Virus genome (UHGV): UHGV-0232315
Reading direction: 5' to 3' (one strand)
From: a virus
DNA length: 35,654 nt
Below the pieces are notes generated by a model. The model did no database searches and was not told the origin of the DNA. It was given only the letters and a program-made list of their open reading frames with translations. The position numbers and the translations under genes are program-made. Each line of letters begins with the position of its first letter. Position 1 is the stretch's first letter. Below are positions 1,797 to 29,142 of this stretch, piece by piece.

Positions 1797-1815
1797 GGCG
1801 TGGCGGGGATACGAG
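1797..1815. other. Possible cos (cohesive end) site
   Basis: GGCGTGGCGGGGATACGAG: first 13 nt match the P2/186 19-nt cohesive-end sequence as I recall it (GGCG[A/T]GGCGGGGAAAGCA..); lies in a 423-bp intergenic region next to a CATGCA-gg-TGCATG dyad (about 1758-1771). Confidence 0.35.
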
Positions 1816-1948
1816 CGCGCGTTATGACAAATAGATGATTAGCCTGATTTATTTACAGCTGTATAAATGATCACCTTGTAATTAGGTAAGTAATGTCTTC
1901 TATTATCATTGATTTGATAGGATTAATCTGTTTTTTGAGGATTAGAGG

Positions 1949-4285
1949 ATGATTGAAGAGGTAGTTATTGACAAGGTAGGCTCATATAATGGCCCTACGC
2001 AGCTTTTACATGGACTTTCTAAATTTAACTATTTATATGGAGCTAATGGTGCAGGTAAAACAACTATAAGTAAAATTATTAATGACCCTGAACAATATCC
2101 AACATGTCCGATTAAATGGAAAAATAATATATCTTTAATAAGCTACGTATATAATAAAGATTTTGTTGAAAGAAATTTTAGTCAAGATAAAATTAAAGGT
2201 GTATTTACCCTTGGTAGCGATCTTAAGGAGGATGAAGAGAAACTAATATCTCTTAAAGAAGAAAAAAATAAGCTAATGGAATCTATTATAGCAAAGGGAA
2301 AGTTAATAGATGGTGGTGATAATGAATTAGGCGTTATTAAAAAAATCGAAGACCATGAAAAATCTTTTAAAGATTCATGTTGGAAGCAAAAAGTAAAACA
2401 TGACAATGTGTTCTCAAAGGCTTTTGAGGGATTAAGGAATAGTAGTGAAAAATTTAAAGCCAGAGTGTTGGCTGAGTATGAAAATAATACATCAGAAGTT
2501 TGCTCAATAGCAGAGTTAATTGAGAAAGCAAAAATTGTTTTTTCTACTGAATTGACATCACATGTATCAATTACAATTCCATCCTTCAATGGGATAGATG
2601 ATATTTTGAGTAGGGAAATTTGGAGTGAGCGTATTCTAGGGAAAAAAGACGTTAGTGTTTCAGACTTAATTACAATGCTCAATAACAGTGATTGGGTTAA
2701 GGAGGGTTTAACATATTTCAGTAAATCTAATCCCAAGTGCCCATTCTGCCAGCAGGATGTAAATGATAATATATTTGATAATCTTTCATCATATTTTGAT
2801 AAAACATATGAGTTAAAAAAAAGAGAAATCGATGCATTGGTTTTACAATATGAATATCAACTTAATAATATCTTGAAGGCGATAGATGATATAAGGGCGA
2901 TTAAATCTCCATTCATAAATTATGAAGTGTTTGAGGATAAGGCTAAGATAGTATTATCTGAATTAAACAAGAATTTTGAATTGGCAAAAAATAAACGCAA
3001 TTTTTTAAGTGAATCAGTTCATTTTAGTGACTTAAGTGAAGTTGTTGATGATTTTATTTCTTTTTTGAATGATTCAAATCTATTGATAGATAATAATAAC
3101 AAAATATATAGTAATAGAAAGGTAGAGGCTAGTAATCTTTCTAAGCAGATATGGGCATATATCGTAAAGGTGGAGTTAAAGTCTGAAATAACTTCTTACC
3201 GTAGCAAATCTGATAAATTTAATAGGACGTTACAAGGACTTAAATCTGGGATAGAAGAAGACAAAAAGAAGTTAATGTTAAATACTTCGGCTATTGAGGC
3301 AATTGAGTCTAATAAAACCAGTACTCTTCCAACTATTACAAAAATTAACAAGATTCTGGACTCTTATGGCTTCAAAAATTTTTACTTAAAACCCTCCGAA
3401 GATAAAAAGCATTATATGATAGTAAGAGATAGTGGAGATAATGCTCGTACAACCCTTAGTGAGGGAGAAAAGACATTTATCACTTTTTTGTACTTTTATA
3501 GCCTTGTTAGAGGGAGTGATAATGCATCAGGTGTTTTAGATGATCGTGTTGTAGTATTTGATGATCCAATTTCAAGTTTAGATAGTGATATTCTGTTTAT
3601 TGTAAGTTCGTTGATTAAAGATTTAATGGAGGATGTTCGTAAGGATGAAGGAAATATTAAGCAAATTATATTCCTTACTCATAATATTTATTTTCATAAA
3701 GAGTTGACTTTTAATACCAAAAGATCCGGTAATCAAGCAATGAAAGAGGAGACTTTTTGGATTGTAAGGAAAAAAGGGAAGGTTTCATATCTTGAAAAGT
3801 GCGAATCAAACCCAATAAAAACGTCTTATGATTTGCTCTGGTGCGAATTGAGAAGAACAGACATTAATAATAATACTATACAAAATACAATGCGAAGGAT
3901 TTTGGAGAATTACTTTAAGATATTAGGTGGGATGGATATTAGGAAGCTTGAGTGTCATTTTTATGGTGATGAAAAAATCATATTTAAATCTTTAGTGTCA
4001 TGGATTAATGATGGTTCCCATTTTGCAGGTGATGATCTTTATATGAATTTAGATACGGAGTCTGTGCAAAAATATTTAATTGTTTTTCAGAAGATATTTG
4101 AATGTAGTGAGCATACTGCCCATTACAAAATGATGATGGGTGAGTTTTATAAACCGTTAAATGAGTCACTTCATCTACAAGATGAGTTTGATATAGATGA
4201 TAGTGCGAATGATGAGTATGCTTCGTCAAAAATTGAGATAAAAGATGGAATAAACACATCTCTACATAGCAACACATATTTGTAA
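1949..4285 (+). CDS. ABC-type (AAA_13-like) ATPase with coiled-coil CxxC hook; RloC/PrrC-like candidate anticodon nuclease
   Basis: Walker A GANGAGKT (aa 32-39), Walker B/D-loop VVVFDDPISSLD, internal CPFC motif between Walker motifs, C-terminal R-x3-E..H arrangement (RRILEN ... H); very AT-rich relative to phage backbone; GAGG RBS. Confidence 0.55.
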   Translation: MIEEVVIDKVGSYNGPTQLLHGLSKFNYLYGANGAGKTTISKIINDPEQYPTCPIKWKNNISLISYVYNKDFVERNFSQDKIKGVFTLGSDLKEDEEKLISLKEEKNKLMESIIAKGKLIDGGDNELGVIKKIEDHEKSFKDSCWKQKVKHDNVFSKAFEGLRNSSEKFKARVLAEYENNTSEVCSIAELIEKAKIVFSTELTSHVSITIPSFNGIDDILSREIWSERILGKKDVSVSDLITMLNNSDWVKEGLTYFSKSNPKCPFCQQDVNDNIFDNLSSYFDKTYELKKREIDALVLQYEYQLNNILKAIDDIRAIKSPFINYEVFEDKAKIVLSELNKNFELAKNKRNFLSESVHFSDLSEVVDDFISFLNDSNLLIDNNNKIYSNRKVEASNLSKQIWAYIVKVELKSEITSYRSKSDKFNRTLQGLKSGIEEDKKKLMLNTSAIEAIESNKTSTLPTITKINKILDSYGFKNFYLKPSEDKKHYMIVRDSGDNARTTLSEGEKTFITFLYFYSLVRGSDNASGVLDDRVVVFDDPISSLDSDILFIVSSLIKDLMEDVRKDEGNIKQIIFLTHNIYFHKELTFNTKRSGNQAMKEETFWIVRKKGKVSYLEKCESNPIKTSYDLLWCELRRTDINNNTIQNTMRRILENYFKILGGMDIRKLECHFYGDEKIIFKSLVSWINDGSHFAGDDLYMNLDTESVQKYLIVFQKIFECSEHTAHYKMMMGEFYKPLNESLHLQDEFDIDDSANDEYASSKIEIKDGINTSLHSNTYL

Positions 4286-5363: not shown

Positions 5364-7129
5364 CAAAAAATCTCCACAATATTGCTGGTATTGGCGGACT
5401 CGCCCTGCAGCGGTTCGTTAAACAGTGCGTGCATCGTTGCCCAGGCCAGATCGGCGTGGCTGGCTTCTTCGCTGCGGCTGGCTTCATAGGTTGGGCGGTT
5501 GCCACTGGCGGTGGTTGCGCGACGGATTGCCATAAATGACTGCGCAATGTCGGTGTGCCCGGCGTCAAACTCCAGACGGCGGTGGCTGATAATGTCGTAG
5601 GCCTTGAGTACCAGGGCGTTTTTAACGTTGGGGTTGTAGACAAACTCCCGGACGGCAGGAAAGAACGCTTTCACGTTCTCGTAAACCCCGTGACCAACGC
5701 CGGTTGAGTCGATACCGATATAAGTCACGTTGTACTGCTCGGTAAGTTTTTTGATGGCGTCAGCCTGGGCGCGGAAGTCCATCCCGCGCCACTGGTGACG
5801 CTCAAGAATGCGGAACTTACCACCCGGCACGGCTGGCGGTGCCACCACCACGCATCCGGCGCTGTCGCCGTTTTGCGTACCTTTTGCCGGGTCATAACCG
5901 ATCCACACTTCGCGCCAGCCAAACGGGCGCAGCGCCAGTGCATGAAAGTCGGTCCAGATTTCCCAGCTGTCTACCATGCACGCCTGCAGCTCGCTGAGAG
6001 GGAACACGGACGCGAGATCGTCCACAAACTCGCACATCAGCAGGTTCTGGTATTCGTCCGGGCTGTACTCCATGCGCAACTGGTCAAGGTCGAACAGGTT
6101 ACAGCCGCCGCGCACCGCATCTTCCACGGTGACTATCTGGCGGTATTGCCCGTCTGCGCACAGCAGGCCGGGGGCCAGATTTCTGTGGGACAGGTCGATG
6201 TCCACCTTATCGGCTTTGTTGCGCCCACGGTTGAACAGCGCACCGGACCAGAACGGATAAGCACTGTGTGTCAGACTGGATGGCGTGGAAAAATAGGTTT
6301 GTCGCCATTTTTTGTGAATAGCCATACCGGAAGCCACTTTGCGCAGCTCCTGGAATTTCGGTATCCAGAAATATTCATCCAGATACAGGTTGCCGTGGTA
6401 ACTCTGGGCCGTGCGGGCATTGGTGCCGAGGAAGTAAAGCGTGGCCCCGTTAGGAAGCACCATCGGATCGCCTTTCAGCTCCACCTCGACTTCTTTGGCG
6501 AAGTCGATGATGTACTGCTTAAAGACGTGGGCCTGTGCCTTACTGGCGGAAAGGAAAATCTGGTTACGTCCGGTAAGCAGAGCGTCAATCAGGGCTTCAC
6601 GGGCAAAGTAAAAGGTCGCGCCGATCTGGCGTGATTTCAGCAGGTTGCGGATGCGGTTGGTTTTTCCGGCTTCCCACCAGTGGCGCTGGTAGTTGAACAT
6701 GGAGGAATGGAAGATTTCTTCCAGCTTCTCAATCTGTTCATCGGTGAAAACATTCTTTTCCGGCTGACGGCGCGGGCCTTTGTTGCGGTTGGCGACGTTA
6801 GGGTTTAAGTCGGCTTCGTTGCCGCCATTGTTAAACTTGCCGATGCGCGCGTGGCGCTCCGACTGGCGCGCCAGCAGGTCAATCTCTTTGAAATCTTTCC
6901 CTTCTTTGTGCTCCTTCATAATGAGCTGGCAGTAGCGTGCGGCGGTGGTGAGCTGCATCTGATCCAGCGGCCCATAGTCACCCCACTTGTCGCGTTTTTT
7001 CCAGCTATGAACGGTTGCAACTTTCTCGCCCAGCATTTCAGCAATGCGGGCGACGCGGTATCCCTGAAAGTACAGCAGCATGGCCTGCCGACGGGGATCG
7101 AGATCTGCGGGTGTCAGTGTGGTGTTCAT
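5363..7129 (-). CDS. P: Terminase large (ATPase) subunit (P2 gpP-like)
   Basis: 588-aa product upstream of Q in the divergent P2 arrangement; ATG 7129. Confidence 0.9.
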   Translation of the reverse strand: MNTTLTPADLDPRRQAMLLYFQGYRVARIAEMLGEKVATVHSWKKRDKWGDYGPLDQMQLTTAARYCQLIMKEHKEGKDFKEIDLLARQSERHARIGKFNNGGNEADLNPNVANRNKGPRRQPEKNVFTDEQIEKLEEIFHSSMFNYQRHWWEAGKTNRIRNLLKSRQIGATFYFAREALIDALLTGRNQIFLSASKAQAHVFKQYIIDFAKEVEVELKGDPMVLPNGATLYFLGTNARTAQSYHGNLYLDEYFWIPKFQELRKVASGMAIHKKWRQTYFSTPSSLTHSAYPFWSGALFNRGRNKADKVDIDLSHRNLAPGLLCADGQYRQIVTVEDAVRGGCNLFDLDQLRMEYSPDEYQNLLMCEFVDDLASVFPLSELQACMVDSWEIWTDFHALALRPFGWREVWIGYDPAKGTQNGDSAGCVVVAPPAVPGGKFRILERHQWRGMDFRAQADAIKKLTEQYNVTYIGIDSTGVGHGVYENVKAFFPAVREFVYNPNVKNALVLKAYDIISHRRLEFDAGHTDIAQSFMAIRRATTASGNRPTYEASRSEEASHADLAWATMHALFNEPLQGESANTSNIVEIF

Positions 7130-7175
7130 GGCACAAACCTACAGCCTTGAATGAAGGCTTTCCCCGCCTGCGGTT

Positions 7176-7193
7176 TGTGTGGTTGTCGGTACA
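7176..7193. promoter_or_regulatory. Ogr/B-type late-promoter activator site (TGT-N12-ACA) in the P/O divergent promoter region
   Basis: TGTgtggttgtcggtACA; centre is 87 bp from the O ATG and 55 bp from the P ATG; an imperfect second dyad TGTttcactgcccccATC lies at 7206-7223. Confidence 0.55.
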
Positions 7194-7271
7194 AATACCG
7201 CGCATTGTTTCACTGCCCCCATCACCGCAACCATAAGGCTCCAGTAAGTTTTTTCTAACGGAGCACGGCTC

Positions 7272-8105
7272 ATGACAGTGAAAGCAAAGCGTTTTCGCAT
7301 CGGGGTGGAAGGTGCCACCACCGATGGACGCGAAATCCAGCGTGAATGGCTGGAACAGATGGCAGCCAGCTACAACCCGGCGGTGTATACCGCGCTGATT
7401 AACCTTGAGCACATCAAGTCTTATCTGCCGGACAGCACCTTTAACCGCTACGGCAAGGTGACGGCGCTGTTTGCTGAAGAAATTACGGAAGGTCCGCTGG
7501 CAGGCAAGATGGCATTGTATGCCGACGTTGAGCCAACGGAGTCCCTGGTGGAACTGGTGAAAAAAGGCCAGAAATTATTCACCTCTATGGAAGTCAGCCC
7601 GAAGTTTGCTGATACGGGCAAAGCCTACCTGGTCGGCCTGGCTGCCACTGATGATCCAGCCAGTCTGGGTACGGAAATGCTGACATTCAGCGCCAGTGCA
7701 GCCCATAACCCGCTGGCAAACCGCAAACAGAATCCTGCCAATCTCTTTACCGCTGCAGAGGAAACGGTGATCGAACTGGAAGAAATCCAGGATGACAAAC
7801 CGTCCCTGTTTGCCCGTGTCACGGCGCTGTTCACCAAAAAAGAGCAGTCCGATGATGCCCGGTTCTCTGATGTGCATAAGGCCGTGGAACTGGTCGCTAC
7901 CGAGCAGCAGAACCTGAGTACGCGCACCGAAAAATCCCTGTCTGAGCAGGAAGAACGCCTGTCTGAGCTGGAGACTGCCCTGCAGGCACAGCAGACCGCC
8001 TTTAATGAACTGGTGGACAAGCTGAGCCATGAAGACAGGCGCCAGGACTACCGCCAGCGTGCAACAGGCGGCAACGCCCCCGCTGACACTCTGACCAATT
8101 GCTGA
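7272..8105 (+). CDS. O: Capsid scaffolding protein (P2 gpO-like)
   Basis: 277 aa, position and sequence consistent with P2 O; ATG 7272. Confidence 0.9.
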   Translation: MTVKAKRFRIGVEGATTDGREIQREWLEQMAASYNPAVYTALINLEHIKSYLPDSTFNRYGKVTALFAEEITEGPLAGKMALYADVEPTESLVELVKKGQKLFTSMEVSPKFADTGKAYLVGLAATDDPASLGTEMLTFSASAAHNPLANRKQNPANLFTAAEETVIELEEIQDDKPSLFARVTALFTKKEQSDDARFSDVHKAVELVATEQQNLSTRTEKSLSEQEERLSELETALQAQQTAFNELVDKLSHEDRRQDYRQRATGGNAPADTLTNC

Positions 8106-8121
8106 TGGAGCACAAAACCTG

Positions 8122-9180
8122 ATGAAGAAGAATACCCGCTTTGCTTTTAACGCTTACCTGCAGCAGCTGGCGCGTCTGAACGGTGTGGCAGTTGAAGAAC
8201 TGTCCAGCAAGTTCACCGTGGAGCCGTCTGTACAGCAGACGCTGGAAGACCAGATCCAGCAGTCCGCCGCTTTCCTGACGCTGATTAACGTCGCGCCAGT
8301 GACTGAGCAGTCCGGTCAGCTGCTGGGGTTGGGAGTTGGCAGCACCATTGCCGGAACCACTGATACCACCGCGAAAGAGCGTGAACCTGTCGATCCGACG
8401 CTGATGGTCGATGTGGAATACAAATGCGAGCAGACCAACTTTGACACGGTACTGACCTACGCGAAGCTGGACCTGTGGGCGAAGTTTCAGGATTTCCAGG
8501 TGCGTATCCGTGACGCCATCGTGAAACGTCAGGCACTGGACCGCATCATGATCGGCTTTAACGGCGTGAAGCGTGCGAAAACCTCCAACCGTAGCGAAAA
8601 CCCGCTGTTGCAAGATGTGAACAAAGGCTGGCTGCAGAAAATCCGTGAAGATGCACCGGATCACGTCATGGGTAGCACCACCACGGGCGGTGAAACCACA
8701 CCGGGTGCGGTGAAAGTCGGGAAAGGTGGCGAATATGCCAACCTGGACGCCGTGGTGATGGATGCCGTCAATGAGCTTATCGACGTGGTCTACCAGGACG
8801 ATGACGATCTGGTGGTGATTTGCGGTCGTGAACTGCTGTCTGACAAGTATTTCCCGCTGGTCAACAAAGAGCAGGAAAACAGTGAAAAACTGGCTGCCGA
8901 TATGATCATCAGTCAGAAACGCATGGGTGGCCTGCAGGCCGTGCGTGCGCCGTTCTTCCCGCCGAATGCACTGCTGATCACCCGTCTGGATAACCTGTCC
9001 ATCTACTGGCAGGAAGACACCCGCCGCCGCTCAGTTATCGACAACCCGAAACGTGACCGGATTGAAAACTTTGAATCCGTTAATGAAGCCTATGTGGTTG
9101 AGGACTACCGCTGCGCCGCACTGGTGGAAAACATCCAGATTGGCGATTTCAGCGCCGCTGCAGCAGAAGCCGGAGCGTAA
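8122..9180 (+). CDS. N: Major capsid protein (P2 gpN-like)
   Basis: 352 aa following O; ATG 8122. Confidence 0.9.
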   Translation: MKKNTRFAFNAYLQQLARLNGVAVEELSSKFTVEPSVQQTLEDQIQQSAAFLTLINVAPVTEQSGQLLGLGVGSTIAGTTDTTAKEREPVDPTLMVDVEYKCEQTNFDTVLTYAKLDLWAKFQDFQVRIRDAIVKRQALDRIMIGFNGVKRAKTSNRSENPLLQDVNKGWLQKIREDAPDHVMGSTTTGGETTPGAVKVGKGGEYANLDAVVMDAVNELIDVVYQDDDDLVVICGRELLSDKYFPLVNKEQENSEKLAADMIISQKRMGGLQAVRAPFFPPNALLITRLDNLSIYWQEDTRRRSVIDNPKRDRIENFESVNEAYVVEDYRCAALVENIQIGDFSAAAAEAGA

Positions 9181-12246: not shown

Positions 12247-12640
12247 AGCGGTGCCTTATGTCCGCAATAACCCGGACAAACTGCATCTGTTTGTGGATAA
12301 CGGTTCGCTGGTTGCCACGGGGGCCAGCTCCATGTCGTGGGAGTACCGTTACACACTGAACGCGGTGATTGAGGATTTCAGCGGCGACCAGAATCTGCTG
12401 ATGGCCCCGGTTTTGCTGTGGCTGAGGGATAACCAGCCCGATGCCATCAATAACCCGGCGTTACGGGAAAAACTATTCACCTTTGAGGTGGATATTCTGC
12501 GCAACGATGTCTGTGATATCAGCCTTAACCTGCAACTGACGGAACGTGTGCTGGTCAGCACTGACGGCAGTGTGTCGAGCGTTGAAGCTGTAGCGGAACC
12601 CGATGAACCTGAAGAAATGTGGACGGTGAAACGTGGCTGA
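12209..12640 (+). CDS. R: Tail completion protein R (P2 gpR-like)
   Basis: ORF 12188-12640 (TTG); start placed at GTG 12209 after AGGAG RBS. Confidence 0.8.
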   Translation: MNKPQSLRHALNKAVPYVRNNPDKLHLFVDNGSLVATGASSMSWEYRYTLNAVIEDFSGDQNLLMAPVLLWLRDNQPDAINNPALREKLFTFEVDILRNDVCDISLNLQLTERVLVSTDGSVSSVEAVAEPDEPEEMWTVKRG

Positions 12641-13085
12641 ACTGCAGAAAGTGGACGACTGGCTGAGTGCCTTGCTGGCGAATCTGGAACCAGCCGCCAG
12701 AAGCCGCATGATGCGCCAGCTGGCGCAGGAACTGCGCCGGACACAGCAGCAGAATATCAGGATGCAGCGCAACCCTGACGGCAGCAGCTATGAACCGCGA
12801 CGGGTAACAGCACGAAGTAAAAAAGGGCGCATCAAACGTCAGATGTTTGCAAAGCTGCGCACCACAAAATACCTGAAAACCGCCGCCAGCGCGGATTCTG
12901 CCAGCGTACAGTTTGAAGGTAAGGTGCAGCGCATTGCCCGCGTTCATCATTACGGCCTGCGCGATCGCGTCAGTCCAAAGGGGGGAGTCATTAAGTATCC
13001 ATCCCGAAAATTGCTGGGTTTAAATGAACATACTGAAAATGAAGTAAGAGATTTACTTTTAAAGTATTTTTTGATGAAAAATTAG
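12633..13085 (+). CDS. S: Tail completion protein S (P2 gpS-like), 3' end AT-rich
   Basis: 150 aa; GTG start overlapping the R stop; last ~25 codons shift to AT-rich composition. Confidence 0.8.
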   Translation: MAELQKVDDWLSALLANLEPAARSRMMRQLAQELRRTQQQNIRMQRNPDGSSYEPRRVTARSKKGRIKRQMFAKLRTTKYLKTAASADSASVQFEGKVQRIARVHHYGLRDRVSPKGGVIKYPSRKLLGLNEHTENEVRDLLLKYFLMKN

Positions 13086-13090
13086 AATGT

Positions 13091-13621
13091 TTACGCACTT
13101 AATAAACTTAAATAACTTTTTATGCTTTGGCAAAAAGGGAAAAGGTCTATTTTAATTTTCCAGTTTTTTTTGTTTTGAACCCCAGAAGCAATAATAGAAC
13201 CATCCCAATATTTTATTCCATTTTTGCCGGTCTTTTTTGTTAACTCAAAACTTAATGCGTGAATAATTTTATTGCAGCATTCGCGTATAGAACCTTTAAC
13301 ATGACCATCTATAACAAAAAGTATATTTTCATGTTCTTCAAATGCTTCTTTCTCAGGTGAGTAATCTGGGTTCCACTCATGTTCATTAGTGTCTTGGAGA
13401 ATTCGTAGTTTTGTACAAAGGCTAATAAGATTGTTGCTAATGGTATATTCCAACCATCCGTTGTACGATAACTCCTCCATTTCAAATTCAGTTACTATAG
13501 AACCATCATATACTTTCTGTGTGGAATATATACGCTGTAAATAAAATTCAGATGAACAGCATAATTGCTCAATTATTCTTGCGTGTTCTTCTATAGCGTA
13601 ATAATCAATTGGATGGCTCAT
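13091..13621 (-). CDS. Hypothetical protein encoded by an AT-rich island between S and V (P2 orf30 position)
   Basis: ORF 13091-13660 on the strand opposite to the tail operon; likely start ATG 13621 (MSHPIDYY...) with GAAAGG RBS; no motif I recognise. Confidence 0.6.
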   Translation of the reverse strand: MSHPIDYYAIEEHARIIEQLCCSSEFYLQRIYSTQKVYDGSIVTEFEMEELSYNGWLEYTISNNLISLCTKLRILQDTNEHEWNPDYSPEKEAFEEHENILFVIDGHVKGSIRECCNKIIHALSFELTKKTGKNGIKYWDGSIIASGVQNKKNWKIKIDLFPFCQSIKSYLSLLSA

Positions 13622-13652
13622 TCTTTTACCTTTCTTCGATTGGAATTGTATT

Positions 13653-13670
13653 TGTGTCATTTACCACACA
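13653..13670. promoter_or_regulatory. TGT-N12-ACA dyad upstream of V (candidate late promoter element)
   Basis: TGTgtcatttaccacACA; centre is only 55 bp from the V ATG and overlaps the 5' end of the antisense island ORF. Confidence 0.4.
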
Positions 13671-13716
13671 AGGACGTATTGATGCCATAGATTCAAGGTC
13701 CGTGCAACCTAACCCT

Positions 13717-14295
13717 ATGAACGCACAACTAACCGAAATCATGCGCCTTATCACCAACCTGATCCGCACTGGGGTAGTCACCGAAGTGGACCGGGAGAAC
13801 TGGCTTTGCCGGGTGAAAACGGGCGAGCTTGAAACCAACTGGATCAGCTGGCTGACGCTGCGTGCCGGGAATGCCCGCACATGGTGGCGACCATCGGAAG
13901 GTGAGCAGGTGGTGCTGCTTAGTCTGGGCGGCAATCTGGAAACAGCCTTTGCGTTACCCGCCATCTATTCGAATCAGTTCGCGCCACCGTCGACGTCGGC
14001 GGACGCCTGCGTGACAGAACATCCTGACGGTGGCTGGTTTGAATACGAACCCGCCACCGGGCGCTGGTATGTCAGGGGCATCAAATCAATGGTCATTGAG
14101 GCCGCTGGCAACATCACCCTGAAAACCAGTGAGTTTGTTCTGGAGGCTGACCGCACGCGCATTAACAGCGAAGTGGTGATCAATGGTGGCGTTACCCAGG
14201 GCGGCGGAGCGATGAGTTCTAACGGGATCGTGGTTGATGCGCATCAGCATACTGGCGTCCTGAAAGGCGGCGACACAACCGGAGGCCCGGTATGA
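13717..14295 (+). CDS. V: Baseplate spike/assembly protein V (P2 gpV-like)
   Basis: ORF 13609-14295; start placed at ATG 13717 (MNAQLTEIMRLITNLIRTG...), which aligns with the P2 V N-terminus. Confidence 0.85.
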   Translation: MNAQLTEIMRLITNLIRTGVVTEVDRENWLCRVKTGELETNWISWLTLRAGNARTWWRPSEGEQVVLLSLGGNLETAFALPAIYSNQFAPPSTSADACVTEHPDGGWFEYEPATGRWYVRGIKSMVIEAAGNITLKTSEFVLEADRTRINSEVVINGGVTQGGGAMSSNGIVVDAHQHTGVLKGGDTTGGPV

Positions 14296-26969: not shown

Positions 26970-27026
26970 AAATTTAACTGTATGTTTGAACAGTGGTCAA
27001 TGTTTAAAGATCTTCAATCAAACATT

Positions 27027-28358
27027 TCATTGGAGCAAGAAAACTTTTAAGGTGTTTTTGAATATTCTAACAGGGTCTTCTACACCTGCATTTCCTTTTA
27101 AAATATGATAATCACTTATTTCAGCCCATCTGTTTTTTTCATCGTTTTCAGAAGGAAGTAAAGGAGAACCTTCTGGCATATATTTATAAGTTATACCAAA
27201 TAATGCATAATAGTAGATGTTGATGTTATATTGATCTGTCTGATATGGGAGTCTATTAACACCGAAGAAATTAATTATTAATTGTGCATCTATTTTATCT
27301 TCTACGTAGTTAAGGGCCAGTTCACGACCAAACGAATAAAGAATTACTGCAAGGGTTCGATAACAGCAATAGCCTGGTATAAATTTATTGCTGATTTCAT
27401 TTTGAGATAAAATTTGATAAATTTCTAGATATCTTGATAAGGTTTCAACTTCCCGTAGCGACAAGCCTTTTAGTTCGATAAATTTTTGAACTATATGAAT
27501 ACTACTTTCTCCAATTTCTTTTAGTCTTTCAGACTCGTTACATAGCATTCTAAAATGAGAGTTCGAAGCCAAAATTTTATCGTAATTGTTTTCAGTGAAA
27601 GTCACTGGCAGGCTGTAAGTGAATTTTATAAATTTATCAAGATATCTTTCTGAGTCAACACCTGCACCGTAAATATGATTTATTGATGCTTTCAATTGTG
27701 AGATGTTAGCAACTAACAAGAAGTTAAGATTTTCAGTGTCAAAAACATGTTTTATATTTTCGATGATAGAGATGGCAAAGCTTGGTTTACAACGGTCAAG
27801 TTCGTCAATGATAATTGTTATTTTATTTTCGCTAGTTAGTTCAGCAAGTACTTCCTTGAGAGCAAGCAAATGTTTCTTTGCTTCAATATGATCATCAAGC
27901 AGTGCTTCTACAGTACCATCTATAGCTGAGTTAGCCGCATCTTTAATAGCATCTTCGAATTCATCCGCAATATCATCTGCATTTTGTTTTAAAATCCACC
28001 CAGCGCCAGCTTTGAGTACAGTTTTAAGTCCAAATCTCAATGCTGGTAATGCCTTTGATATTAATTCCTTCTTTTCACTCTCTGGATATAATGCAACTAT
28101 TGCAGCCATTATAGTAAGTATGGGAGCATCATTATGATCTTCAGTAAATGCATCAATATATACTACTTTATGCCCAGATTCATTTTTTTCAATCAATGCC
28201 GCTAATTTTTTTGAAAATTCGGTTTTACCGGTACCCCAGTCCCCATCGATAACAATAGGGGATATTTTTAAGGGGGACTCGAGTAAGCTTATTATTTTTT
28301 CAGCAATGATTTTTCTATTATACTCATCTCTGTTTTCAAAAGTCATATCATTATTCAT
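27027..28358 (-). CDS. KAP-family P-loop NTPase
   Basis: Walker A GDWGTGKT (GxWGxGKT KAP signature) and Walker B IIIDELDRC; ORF-track start 28367 is TTG, I place the start at ATG 28358 after AAGG; AT-rich. Confidence 0.65.
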   Translation of the reverse strand: MNNDMTFENRDEYNRKIIAEKIISLLESPLKISPIVIDGDWGTGKTEFSKKLAALIEKNESGHKVVYIDAFTEDHNDAPILTIMAAIVALYPESEKKELISKALPALRFGLKTVLKAGAGWILKQNADDIADEFEDAIKDAANSAIDGTVEALLDDHIEAKKHLLALKEVLAELTSENKITIIIDELDRCKPSFAISIIENIKHVFDTENLNFLLVANISQLKASINHIYGAGVDSERYLDKFIKFTYSLPVTFTENNYDKILASNSHFRMLCNESERLKEIGESSIHIVQKFIELKGLSLREVETLSRYLEIYQILSQNEISNKFIPGYCCYRTLAVILYSFGRELALNYVEDKIDAQLIINFFGVNRLPYQTDQYNINIYYYALFGITYKYMPEGSPLLPSENDEKNRWAEISDYHILKGNAGVEDPVRIFKNTLKVFLLQ

Positions 28359-28369
28359 ATGAAGCAACC

Positions 28370-28555
28370 TTAGTTTTTAGAACATATTTTCTTTGACTTG
28401 CTTTGCGTTCCATCATTGCAAACGAACTTCCCATCAGATGTACAATGTGAAACTCCCCCTTTCTTACCAGAACATGGATAATTTTTTGCAAAACTTGTAA
28501 TAGGTAAAGTAATAAATAAACAAATAAGTAGGATATGTATAGATTTATAAAACAT
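28370..28555 (-). CDS. Small secreted Cys-rich, Lys-rich peptide (predicted signal peptide)
   Basis: ORF 28370-28573; start placed at ATG 28555 after AAGGA; [23 protein letters not shown] then a 38-aa mature part with 4 Cys and 8 Lys; stop lies 11 nt upstream of the NTPase ATG (28358). Confidence 0.5.
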
Positions 28556-28578
28556 ATTTATTTCCTTATACATTAATT

Positions 28579-29142
28579 TTAATAATTGACGATCGCGCTT
28601 CTAATTTTTCCTATGATATCAATTTCATCTATTTTGCATTCAAAGGAACTGCTGCCACCATCGACATTTAGACGACGTCCCGGCAGTCTTGTCAGATTCC
28701 TGATAGCAACCTCGCCATCAATATCAACGATCCACTTACCATCACGTACATCCTCATAATCCGAATCACAGATAAACTCTGATGCGCCATCGATCACAAC
28801 AAAAGGTTTTTTTAGTTTTTCAGGCAAAAAGTTGTTGTCGAAAATGTAGTAACCATCAGGAAGTAGTTTTCCGCTTGATAAAATCTTCCTTTCGATCTCT
28901 TTTGTGTTTTCTTTTTGTGAACTTTCTTTTGAACCTTGCCCAGTAGTTAGCCACTCTAGCGACGTGCCGGTTTCAAGTGCACATTGGATTACCCATTCTG
29001 CCGGGAATGAATCACGCATATAGCGCGTGGCTAAGGTGCTTTTAGAAATGCCCAAATGATCACACAAAGCTTGTCTTGTCTTGAAACCATAGGCTTCAAC
29101 CATGCGCTCTATGGCCCCACGACCGCCTTTTTCCAAATTCAT
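28579..29142 (-). CDS. cI: Immunity repressor CI (phage 186 CI-like)
   Basis: ORF 28579-29148 (GTG); ATG 29142 after GGAG; N-terminal HTH region and C-terminal ...[27 protein letters not shown]... resembling 186 CI. Confidence 0.8.

Follow-up and report, generated by a model that had tools for sequence, protein, structure and literature searches.

Between the tail genes S and V of the 35,654-nucleotide viral DNA analysed here (UHGV virus genome UHGV-0232315, called the window throughout) lies a minus-strand gene at 13091..13621 that encodes a 176-aa protein (PHROG 18838), and we refer to it as the cargo gene. Its assignment is based on the open reading frame (ORF) call, homologues, the ratio of nonsynonymous to synonymous divergence (dN/dS), an AlphaFold model, and transcription of an orthologue in Escherichia coli LF82. 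The S-V region of the window is 97.4% identical to that of Escherichia phage Cartapus (P2-like; Peduoviridae, Elveevirus), a prophage of LF82. Gene S (tail completion/virion morphogenesis; 12633..13085, plus strand) was identified from the annotation of the Cartapus and LF82 counterparts, and gene V (baseplate spike; 13717..14295, plus strand), the first gene of the downstream late operon, from the ORF call together with the same annotation. The cargo gene is an accessory “moron” in the S/V slot, and it is expressed from the prophage in the lysogen. An earlier sequence-only reading had described an antisense, AT-rich accessory gene of unknown function at the S/V junction, in the position of P2 orf30, and this description holds: the gene is on the minus strand, lies in a segment with a GC content of 0.33 versus 0.57 and matches no annotated family, and Orf30 has the same antisense place between the two tail genes in the P2 record.

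The cargo ORF is a genuine protein-coding gene under purifying selection. In dinucleotide-preserving shuffles of 12983-13716 (n=3000), the longest stop-free run averages 70 codons with a maximum of 153, and none of the 3000 reaches 176. Comparison of the window and Salmonella copies gives a dN of 0.15 and a dS of 1.45 (dN/dS 0.10), more distant pairs being synonymously saturated, and homologues reach down to ∼20% identity; the conservation at the protein level whose absence would have counted against the sequence-only reading is thus present.

The minus-strand ORF as listed for the window extends over 13091..13660 (189 aa), and an internal ATG at 13621 gives the 176-aa protein. This ATG is the true start, and the longer version, which is used by the old LF82 annotation and by PHROG, is an annotation variant. 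An equivalent M-S/P-H-P sequence opens nearly all full-length homologues, the 531-nt version is the one that RefSeq gives for Cartapus and LF82, and a pentamer that reads as Shine-Dalgarno-like (AAAGG; 13629..13633, minus strand) is positioned 7 nt before the ATG. Judged by the homologue starts and RefSeq, the in-frame upstream extension (13622..13660, minus strand) is probably untranslated leader or promoter. A consensus promoter scan found no consensus sigma-70 promoter for the gene. The best candidate for a -10 hexamer, put forward only weakly, is TACAAT (13645..13650, read from 13650 to 13645 on the minus strand), which the consensus scan does not report and which is poorly conserved among other carriers; its -35 would sit inside the late-promoter dyad.

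This dyad, TTGTGT-N8-ACACAA (TGT-N12-ACA; 13652..13671), is centred 55 nt before the V ATG and is the predicted late-gene activator site of the V promoter. Every aligned Fels-2-type S-V junction, cargo-bearing or empty, keeps it, while the surrounding bases differ, and in the P2 record an activator binding site is annotated at the corresponding place before V. The 5′ end of the gene had been read as overlapping the dyad, and this is correct only for the unused 189-aa version and, presumably, for the cargo-gene promoter, since the 176-aa coding sequence stops 31 nt short. At the other end, the S stop (TAG, 13083-13085) and the cargo-gene stop (plus-strand TTA, 13091-13093) are 5 nt apart (13086..13090), exactly as the sequence-only reading had it. 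P2 has a terminator after S, whereas a terminator scan of 12900-13800 found no intrinsic terminator between the convergent S and cargo gene (13083-13093), so that late transcripts are expected to read through the cargo gene in antisense.

An alignment of S-V junctions had been suggested as a way of defining the boundaries of the insertion. In the related empty-site phages 500465-1 and KP12, S and V are just 68 bp apart, and in the alignment with these phages similarity is lost inside S after 12982 and regained just before the V ATG. The AT-rich segment that this alignment and the base composition define (12983..13716, 734 bp) has a GC content of 0.33, compared with ∼0.57 in the flanks (0.27-0.35 over ∼13000-13700 versus 0.53-0.61 on either side), and runs from the 3′ end of S through the antisense gene to the V promoter region. 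In S, the final ∼34 codons (12983-13085) encode a diverged, recognisably homologous gpS C-terminus, and the GC content of the last 100 nt of the gene is 0.27, versus 0.58 in the empty-site phages; the 3′ end of S is likewise AT-rich and diverged in the carrier prophages of Salmonella, Enterobacter and Pantoea. A foreign segment is thus defined, but it is not a clean insertion between genes: the exchanged unit is the whole of 12983-13716, with the S end and the V promoter region replaced along with the cargo gene. Because this unit spans the S end to the V promoter region, the gene appears wedged in without spare sequence.

Transcription and distribution of the cargo gene

The strand-resolved RNA-seq data of LF82 (PMC9928086, S1 Table) list LF82_787, which is the 98%-identical orthologue of the window gene, and show that the minus-strand transcript predicted by the sequence-only reading is made in lysogens. 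Expression was measured on this orthologue as log2 of fragments per kilobase per million (fpkm), in the form log2(fpkm+5), with two replicates each and a floor of 2.32. The values for LF82_787 are 3.51/2.71 in overnight LB, 5.06/5.16 and 5.89/5.97 after 1 h and 6 h in Dulbecco’s modified Eagle medium (DMEM), and 5.11/5.28 and 4.57/4.38 after 1 h and 6 h in macrophages. In the same order of conditions, the integrase is at 3.61/3.46, 5.97/6.19, 5.69/6.07, 6.43/6.23 and 5.84/6.17, and the CI repressor at 5.12/4.96, 8.16/8.35, 8.14/8.02, 9.28/9.25 and 8.14/8.14, so that the profile of LF82_787 tracks those of both prophage genes. The tail genes S, V, W and J are at 2.3-3.3, with the exception of V in macrophages at 6 h (4.0-4.3). 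The cargo gene is therefore transcribed in lysogens with the repressor and the integrase while the late genes are silent, and in the LF82 orthologue it shows the lysogen transcription, independent of surrounding late genes, by which morons are recognised. LF82_787 is absent from the published moron list because the authors’ cut-off used the overnight LB samples only (PMC9928086). The published “hypothetical” Cartapus moron, LF82_789, was considered as a possible entry for this gene and rejected; it lies near the portal gene, and the correct entry is LF82_787.

The segment is present at ≥99% identity in 22 of 5426 complete E. coli genomes, compared with 1063 genomes that have the same S..V backbone (query, S-side plus V-side flanks), and Cartapus is the sole match of the query protein in 50,697 phage records (tblastn). 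Atypical composition is thus combined with presence/absence polymorphism among close relatives, another mark of a moron, and the phage can do without the cargo gene, as the empty site of most relatives shows. Copies with 74%, 60% and 51% protein identity are antisense between V and S in P2-like prophages of Salmonella, Enterobacter and Pantoea, respectively, and all 19 IMG/VR viral contigs found have this antisense S/V arrangement.

More distant relatives were located by retrieving genomic loci with a 13-sequence family alignment. The 28 loci span Vibrionaceae, Pseudoalteromonas, Stutzerimonas, alphaproteobacteria, and metagenome-assembled genomes of Chloroflexia and Dokdonia (Bacteroidota), and in 27 of them the GC content of the gene is lower than that of its locus. 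In three Vibrionaceae loci, from Aliivibrio (L010), V. fujianensis (L014) and V. mimicus (L022; VCR-like repeats), the family member is the only ORF between consecutive attC-type array repeats, which makes these relatives integron cassettes, a description that does not apply to the window copy. No conserved partner gene, either antitoxin or sensor, was found across 29 loci beyond one five-member island. The gene moves as a single-gene unit: recombination inside S and beside V transfers it between P2-like prophages, and its Vibrio and Aliivibrio relatives travel as integron cassettes. The pattern of contexts is that of a self-sufficient one-gene module.

The five-member island is shared by alphaproteobacterial loci L023, L024, L027, L028 and L029 (∼6150-8420), and contains an apparent operon of DUF6088 (AbiEi-like), an AbiEii nucleotidyltransferase and the family member, which overlaps the stop of the AbiEii gene by 4 nt in all five loci. 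This operon adjoins a UvrD-helicase/PD-(D/E)XK/M78 protein. A metagenomic relative adjoins a type I restriction R subunit and an AAA_21 ATPase.

The S/V slot and the protein family

The orf30 locus counts among the three regions of P2-like phages in which horizontally acquired genes are found (PMC3091744), and the E. coli S/V junction is a hotspot for single-gene cargo in which defence candidates also occur. Of 48 sampled records in which the two flanks are joined, 29 are empty (2790 bp) and 19 have 680-1560 extra bp. Nine occupants were examined (L039-L047), and each consists of one AT-rich gene (GC 0.31-0.37) that is antisense in eight of the nine, the exception being a TIR gene. Most bring a diverged S end, with the last 20-40 codons of S swapped along with the cargo. 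Five of the nine encode recognisable proteins: a TIR protein (weak PDC-S66/SpbK hits), a SIR2 protein (PDC-S25, ThsA-like), an FRG protein (PDC-S15), a PDC-S59 protein (E 1.7e-197) and a DUF6216 protein of E. coli B/BL21, whose gene in E. coli Nico21(DE3) (L042, BL21-type; 834-1640) overlaps the S end by 59 nt. The other four proteins are unannotated. The cargo gene resembles these occupants in its junction, its AT-rich composition, its mostly shared antisense orientation and the diverged S end that most of them have; it differs in that the PDC-S59, PDC-S15/FRG, PDC-S25 SIR2, TIR and DUF6216 proteins belong to unrelated families with recognisable defence-type domains or catalogue entries, and the cargo protein has none.

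P2 Orf30 (NP_046770, nonessential, function unknown) likewise stands alone and antisense at the S/V junction, immediately before the activator-dependent V promoter, and the cargo gene belongs to the positional class of that locus, being nonessential, between S and V, and antisense to the late operons. Orf30 is longer (261 versus 176 aa), and S of P2 is followed by its terminator while S of the window has none and has a replaced 3′ end. Homology of the two proteins was rejected (best BLASTP E 0.24 over 26 residues). The P2 exclusion morons old, tin and fun(Z) are also nonessential, prophage-expressed according to the P2 literature, and located in variable regions of P2-like phages, and Z/fun is listed as phage exclusion (PMC3091744). 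They differ from the cargo gene in that they occupy other loci and encode unrelated proteins, and the demonstrated exclusion phenotypes are theirs only.

Morons at known variable loci of P2-like phages are a familiar kind of feature; the protein family encoded here is undescribed. A word-indexed search returned 12 related clusters, and an exhaustive profile search returned 433 representative clusters at E≤1e-3 and 131 at E≤1e-10, nearly all of them single-domain proteins of 170-210 aa. In a 128-member alignment, the positions conserved in ≥90% of sequences are M1, R73, R113, N117, K118, H121, G147 and W154. R73, R113, N117, K118 and H121 form a near-invariant basic/histidine cluster, and the family alignment has no invariant acidic residue. 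Nearly all of 160 members have the signature R-E-x-C-N-K-[IV]-[IV]-H, which in the cargo protein is R113-E-C-C-N117-K118-I-I-H121 (codons at 13259..13285, minus strand), identified by conservation and placed by AlphaFold on a short helix (residues 112-120). In PHROGs the protein matches only an “unknown function” family that was built on it, and a profile search against PDB sequences gave no match.

AlphaFold, which the sequence-only reading had recommended together with Foldseek, gives a confident model, with a predicted local distance difference test score (pLDDT) of 88.9 for an input of 13 sequences, and a pLDDT of 94.4 and a predicted template modelling score of 0.89 for 128 sequences; the secondary structure is identical in both. 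The model has two long helices (7-34 and 45-78), a short helix (89-95), the motif helix and a C-terminal helix (160-175), along with four strands (101-105, 124-131, 137-149 and 152-159). Its only structural neighbours are helical bundles at weak scores, several of which are from the HEPN clan.

A possible anti-phage function and its alternatives

Because related prophages carry anti-phage defence genes in the same slot, the cargo gene is a good candidate for a new single-protein defence gene. Further context in favour comes from the other two AT-rich islands of the window, which encode PADLOC candidates PDC-S06 and PDC-S20, and from the distant family members that adjoin AbiEi/AbiEii genes or the type I restriction R subunit with its AAA_21 ATPase. 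Our preferred reading, which we hold tentatively, is that it is a prophage-expressed, single-protein anti-phage gene of the superinfection-exclusion or abortive-infection type, activated by infection and acting on nucleic acid by way of the R/N/K/H site; both the defence role and the chemistry are inferred. The protein would be inactive until an incoming phage is sensed, whereupon the R73, R113, N117, K118 and H121 cluster would bind nucleic acid or cut it without the help of a metal, as HEPN-type Abi proteins do, with RNA the most plausible target; this attack would stop phage growth. A metal-independent, nucleic-acid-directed activity seems the most plausible because the basic/histidine cluster is conserved without an invariant acidic residue, and the protein is possibly a nuclease. 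A broader proposal, which we regard as doubtful, is that the gene founds an undescribed family of stand-alone anti-phage effectors with a helical-bundle-plus-sheet fold and an R-x3-N-K-x2-H site, either HEPN-derived with the arginine displaced or a metal-free nuclease of independent origin, that shuttles as a one-gene unit among the S/V hotspot, Vibrionaceae integron cassettes and chromosomal defence islands.

Several observations weigh against an anti-phage role of this type. Scans of the query protein with Pfam, NCBIfam and PADLOC gave no match, Pfam and PADLOC scans of the 128 members gave only scattered, weak single hits at chance level, and 120 further members carry the name “hypothetical” and no domain (names and Pfam fields). 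Foldseek found nothing at E<0.1 in either PDB or BFVD. Hotspot and integron cargo is not always defensive, the AbiE association represents one shared island and counts as a single event, and many neighbourhoods of distant members consist of ordinary genes mixed with mobile-element genes. Expression of LF82_787 is modest, and in overnight LB it falls below the 5-fold cut-off, so that the gene was left unscored as a moron by the LF82 authors. The comparison with HEPN is also imperfect, in that the R-to-H spacing of 7 lies outside the HEPN Rx4-6H rule, the four-stranded sheet that follows the motif helix in the model is atypical of HEPN, and hhalign against a 24-sequence HEPN family (RSAIVHGG motif) gave a probability of 0.2%.

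The family motif reads like the HEPN R-N-x-x-x-H with three residues inserted after R; its N-x3-H part fits R-N-x3-H, but the residue directly before N is Cys or variable. The Pfam list for the 128 members comprises 25 families at E≤1, with 20 further weak single-member hits beyond the list, and no HEPN family is among the 25. We therefore do not assign the family to HEPN, given the spacing, the lack of a Pfam or PDB profile match, and the hhalign result, which rejects a profile link at this sensitivity. Compared with HEPN Abi and toxin proteins (HepT/HEPN toxins 5yep and 7ae2; AbiU2-type cassettes), the family is similar in its conserved R...N-K-x-x-H, which the model places on one helix face, and in being stand-alone and in defence-type contexts; it differs in the spacing (7 versus 4-6), the sheet after the motif helix, and the lack of an adjacent MNT antitoxin. 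A HEPN AbiU2 integron cassette of V. mimicus is reported to protect against T4 and T7. Vpc_cass2 of Vibrio metoecus (PDB 3JRT) is also a chromosomal-integron cassette protein of ∼170 aa with function unknown, and it forms a dimer of a four-helix bundle related to the KNTase_C/HEPN clan (PMC3548836), but it is all-alpha without a sheet, has no detectable sequence relation to the family, and conserves other residues (K63, E66 and H109). One IMG/VR P2-like contig (L066; 3698-5575) has two convergent cargo genes in its S/V slot, a family member (175 aa) and a 420-aa ORF with an invariant R-S-A-I-V-H-G-G (Rx4H), whose homologues are named “HEPN domain-containing protein” by NCBI and UniRef; hhalign detects no profile similarity between the families of the two proteins.

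The main alternative to an anti-phage role, which we consider unlikely, is a lysogenic-conversion gene unrelated to defence, that is, a host-fitness or regulatory factor such as a stress- or niche-related RNA- or nucleotide-binding protein. LF82_787 transcripts are close to background in overnight LB and reach 5-6 log2 units in DMEM and in macrophages, as might suit such a factor, but the rise is common to the repressor and the integrase and so is not specific to the gene. Non-defence functions are numerous among integron cassettes and prophage morons (PMC9928086), the neighbourhoods of distant members are heterogeneous, and the protein has no match in any defence catalogue; against this, all identifiable occupants of the S/V slot and of the prophage’s other AT-rich islands are defence-like, and a niche-specific role fits poorly with a family that occurs in enterics and alphaproteobacteria as well as in marine Vibrionaceae. 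A toxin-like or addiction element, meaning a growth-arresting nuclease that stabilises its carrier (prophage or integron array) rather than excluding phages, is less probable still. In its R/N/K/H cluster without an acidic residue the family is reminiscent of metal-independent RNase toxins, chromosomal integrons often carry toxin-antitoxin cassettes (PMC12548467), and the alphaproteobacterial members overlap the stop of a toxin gene, AbiEii; yet no conserved partner or antitoxin of the type II kind adjoins the gene in the 29 loci, P2-like prophages leave no room for one (5 nt to S and 95 nt to V), and the gene is stably carried alone in the 22 complete E. coli genomes.

We rate as improbable a counter-defence or phage-benefit factor with which the P2-like phage, or its lysogen once induced, would overcome satellites or the immunity of the host. 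The gene is phage-borne, small and fast-evolving, it lies in AT-rich DNA beside late promoters, and slots of this sort can hold anti-defence genes. It is, however, antisense to the late operons and transcribed lysogenically with CI and the integrase rather than with the lytic genes, the family also circulates in integron cassettes and chromosomal islands outside phages, and the identifiable occupants of the slot are defence effectors. A chance ORF in AT-rich spacer DNA, for which one could cite the lack of a family annotation and of a consensus promoter or terminator, is already refuted by the shuffles (0/3000), the dN/dS of 0.10, the 433 clusters with a near-invariant motif, the model (pLDDT 94) and the transcription.

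If the cargo gene is anti-phage, as we tentatively prefer, it would add a compact (176 aa), widely distributed single-protein system that is absent from current defence catalogues, and the S/V junction of P2-like prophages would be a practical place to mine one-gene systems, several of its other occupants being equally unannotated. Since the exchanged block holds its own version of the S end and of the late promoter, a swap of cargo also alters a tail protein. Because the Crohn’s-associated strain LF82 carries the gene and transcribes it within macrophages, its function can be tested directly in a strain that is already under study.

The window contains two further AT-rich islands. In the first (1801-4285; GC ∼0.30), a 778-aa ORF (1949-4285, plus strand) matches PADLOC PDC-S06 almost end to end (E 1e-266), with weaker similarity to LmuB and PrrC, and lies beside the portal-side prophage end, which is the known cos-proximal hotspot (PMC9122126); the work of Rousset et al. 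2022 covers that hotspot only and not the S/V locus. The second (27001-28800; GC 0.31-0.35) contains a 446-aa ORF (27027-28367, minus strand) that matches PADLOC PDC-S20 (E 1e-171) and has weaker similarity to PifA and QatA. In addition, a 193-aa minus-strand ORF at 944-1525 has weak PADLOC hits to ShosT (E 9e-9) and PsyrT (E 1e-7).
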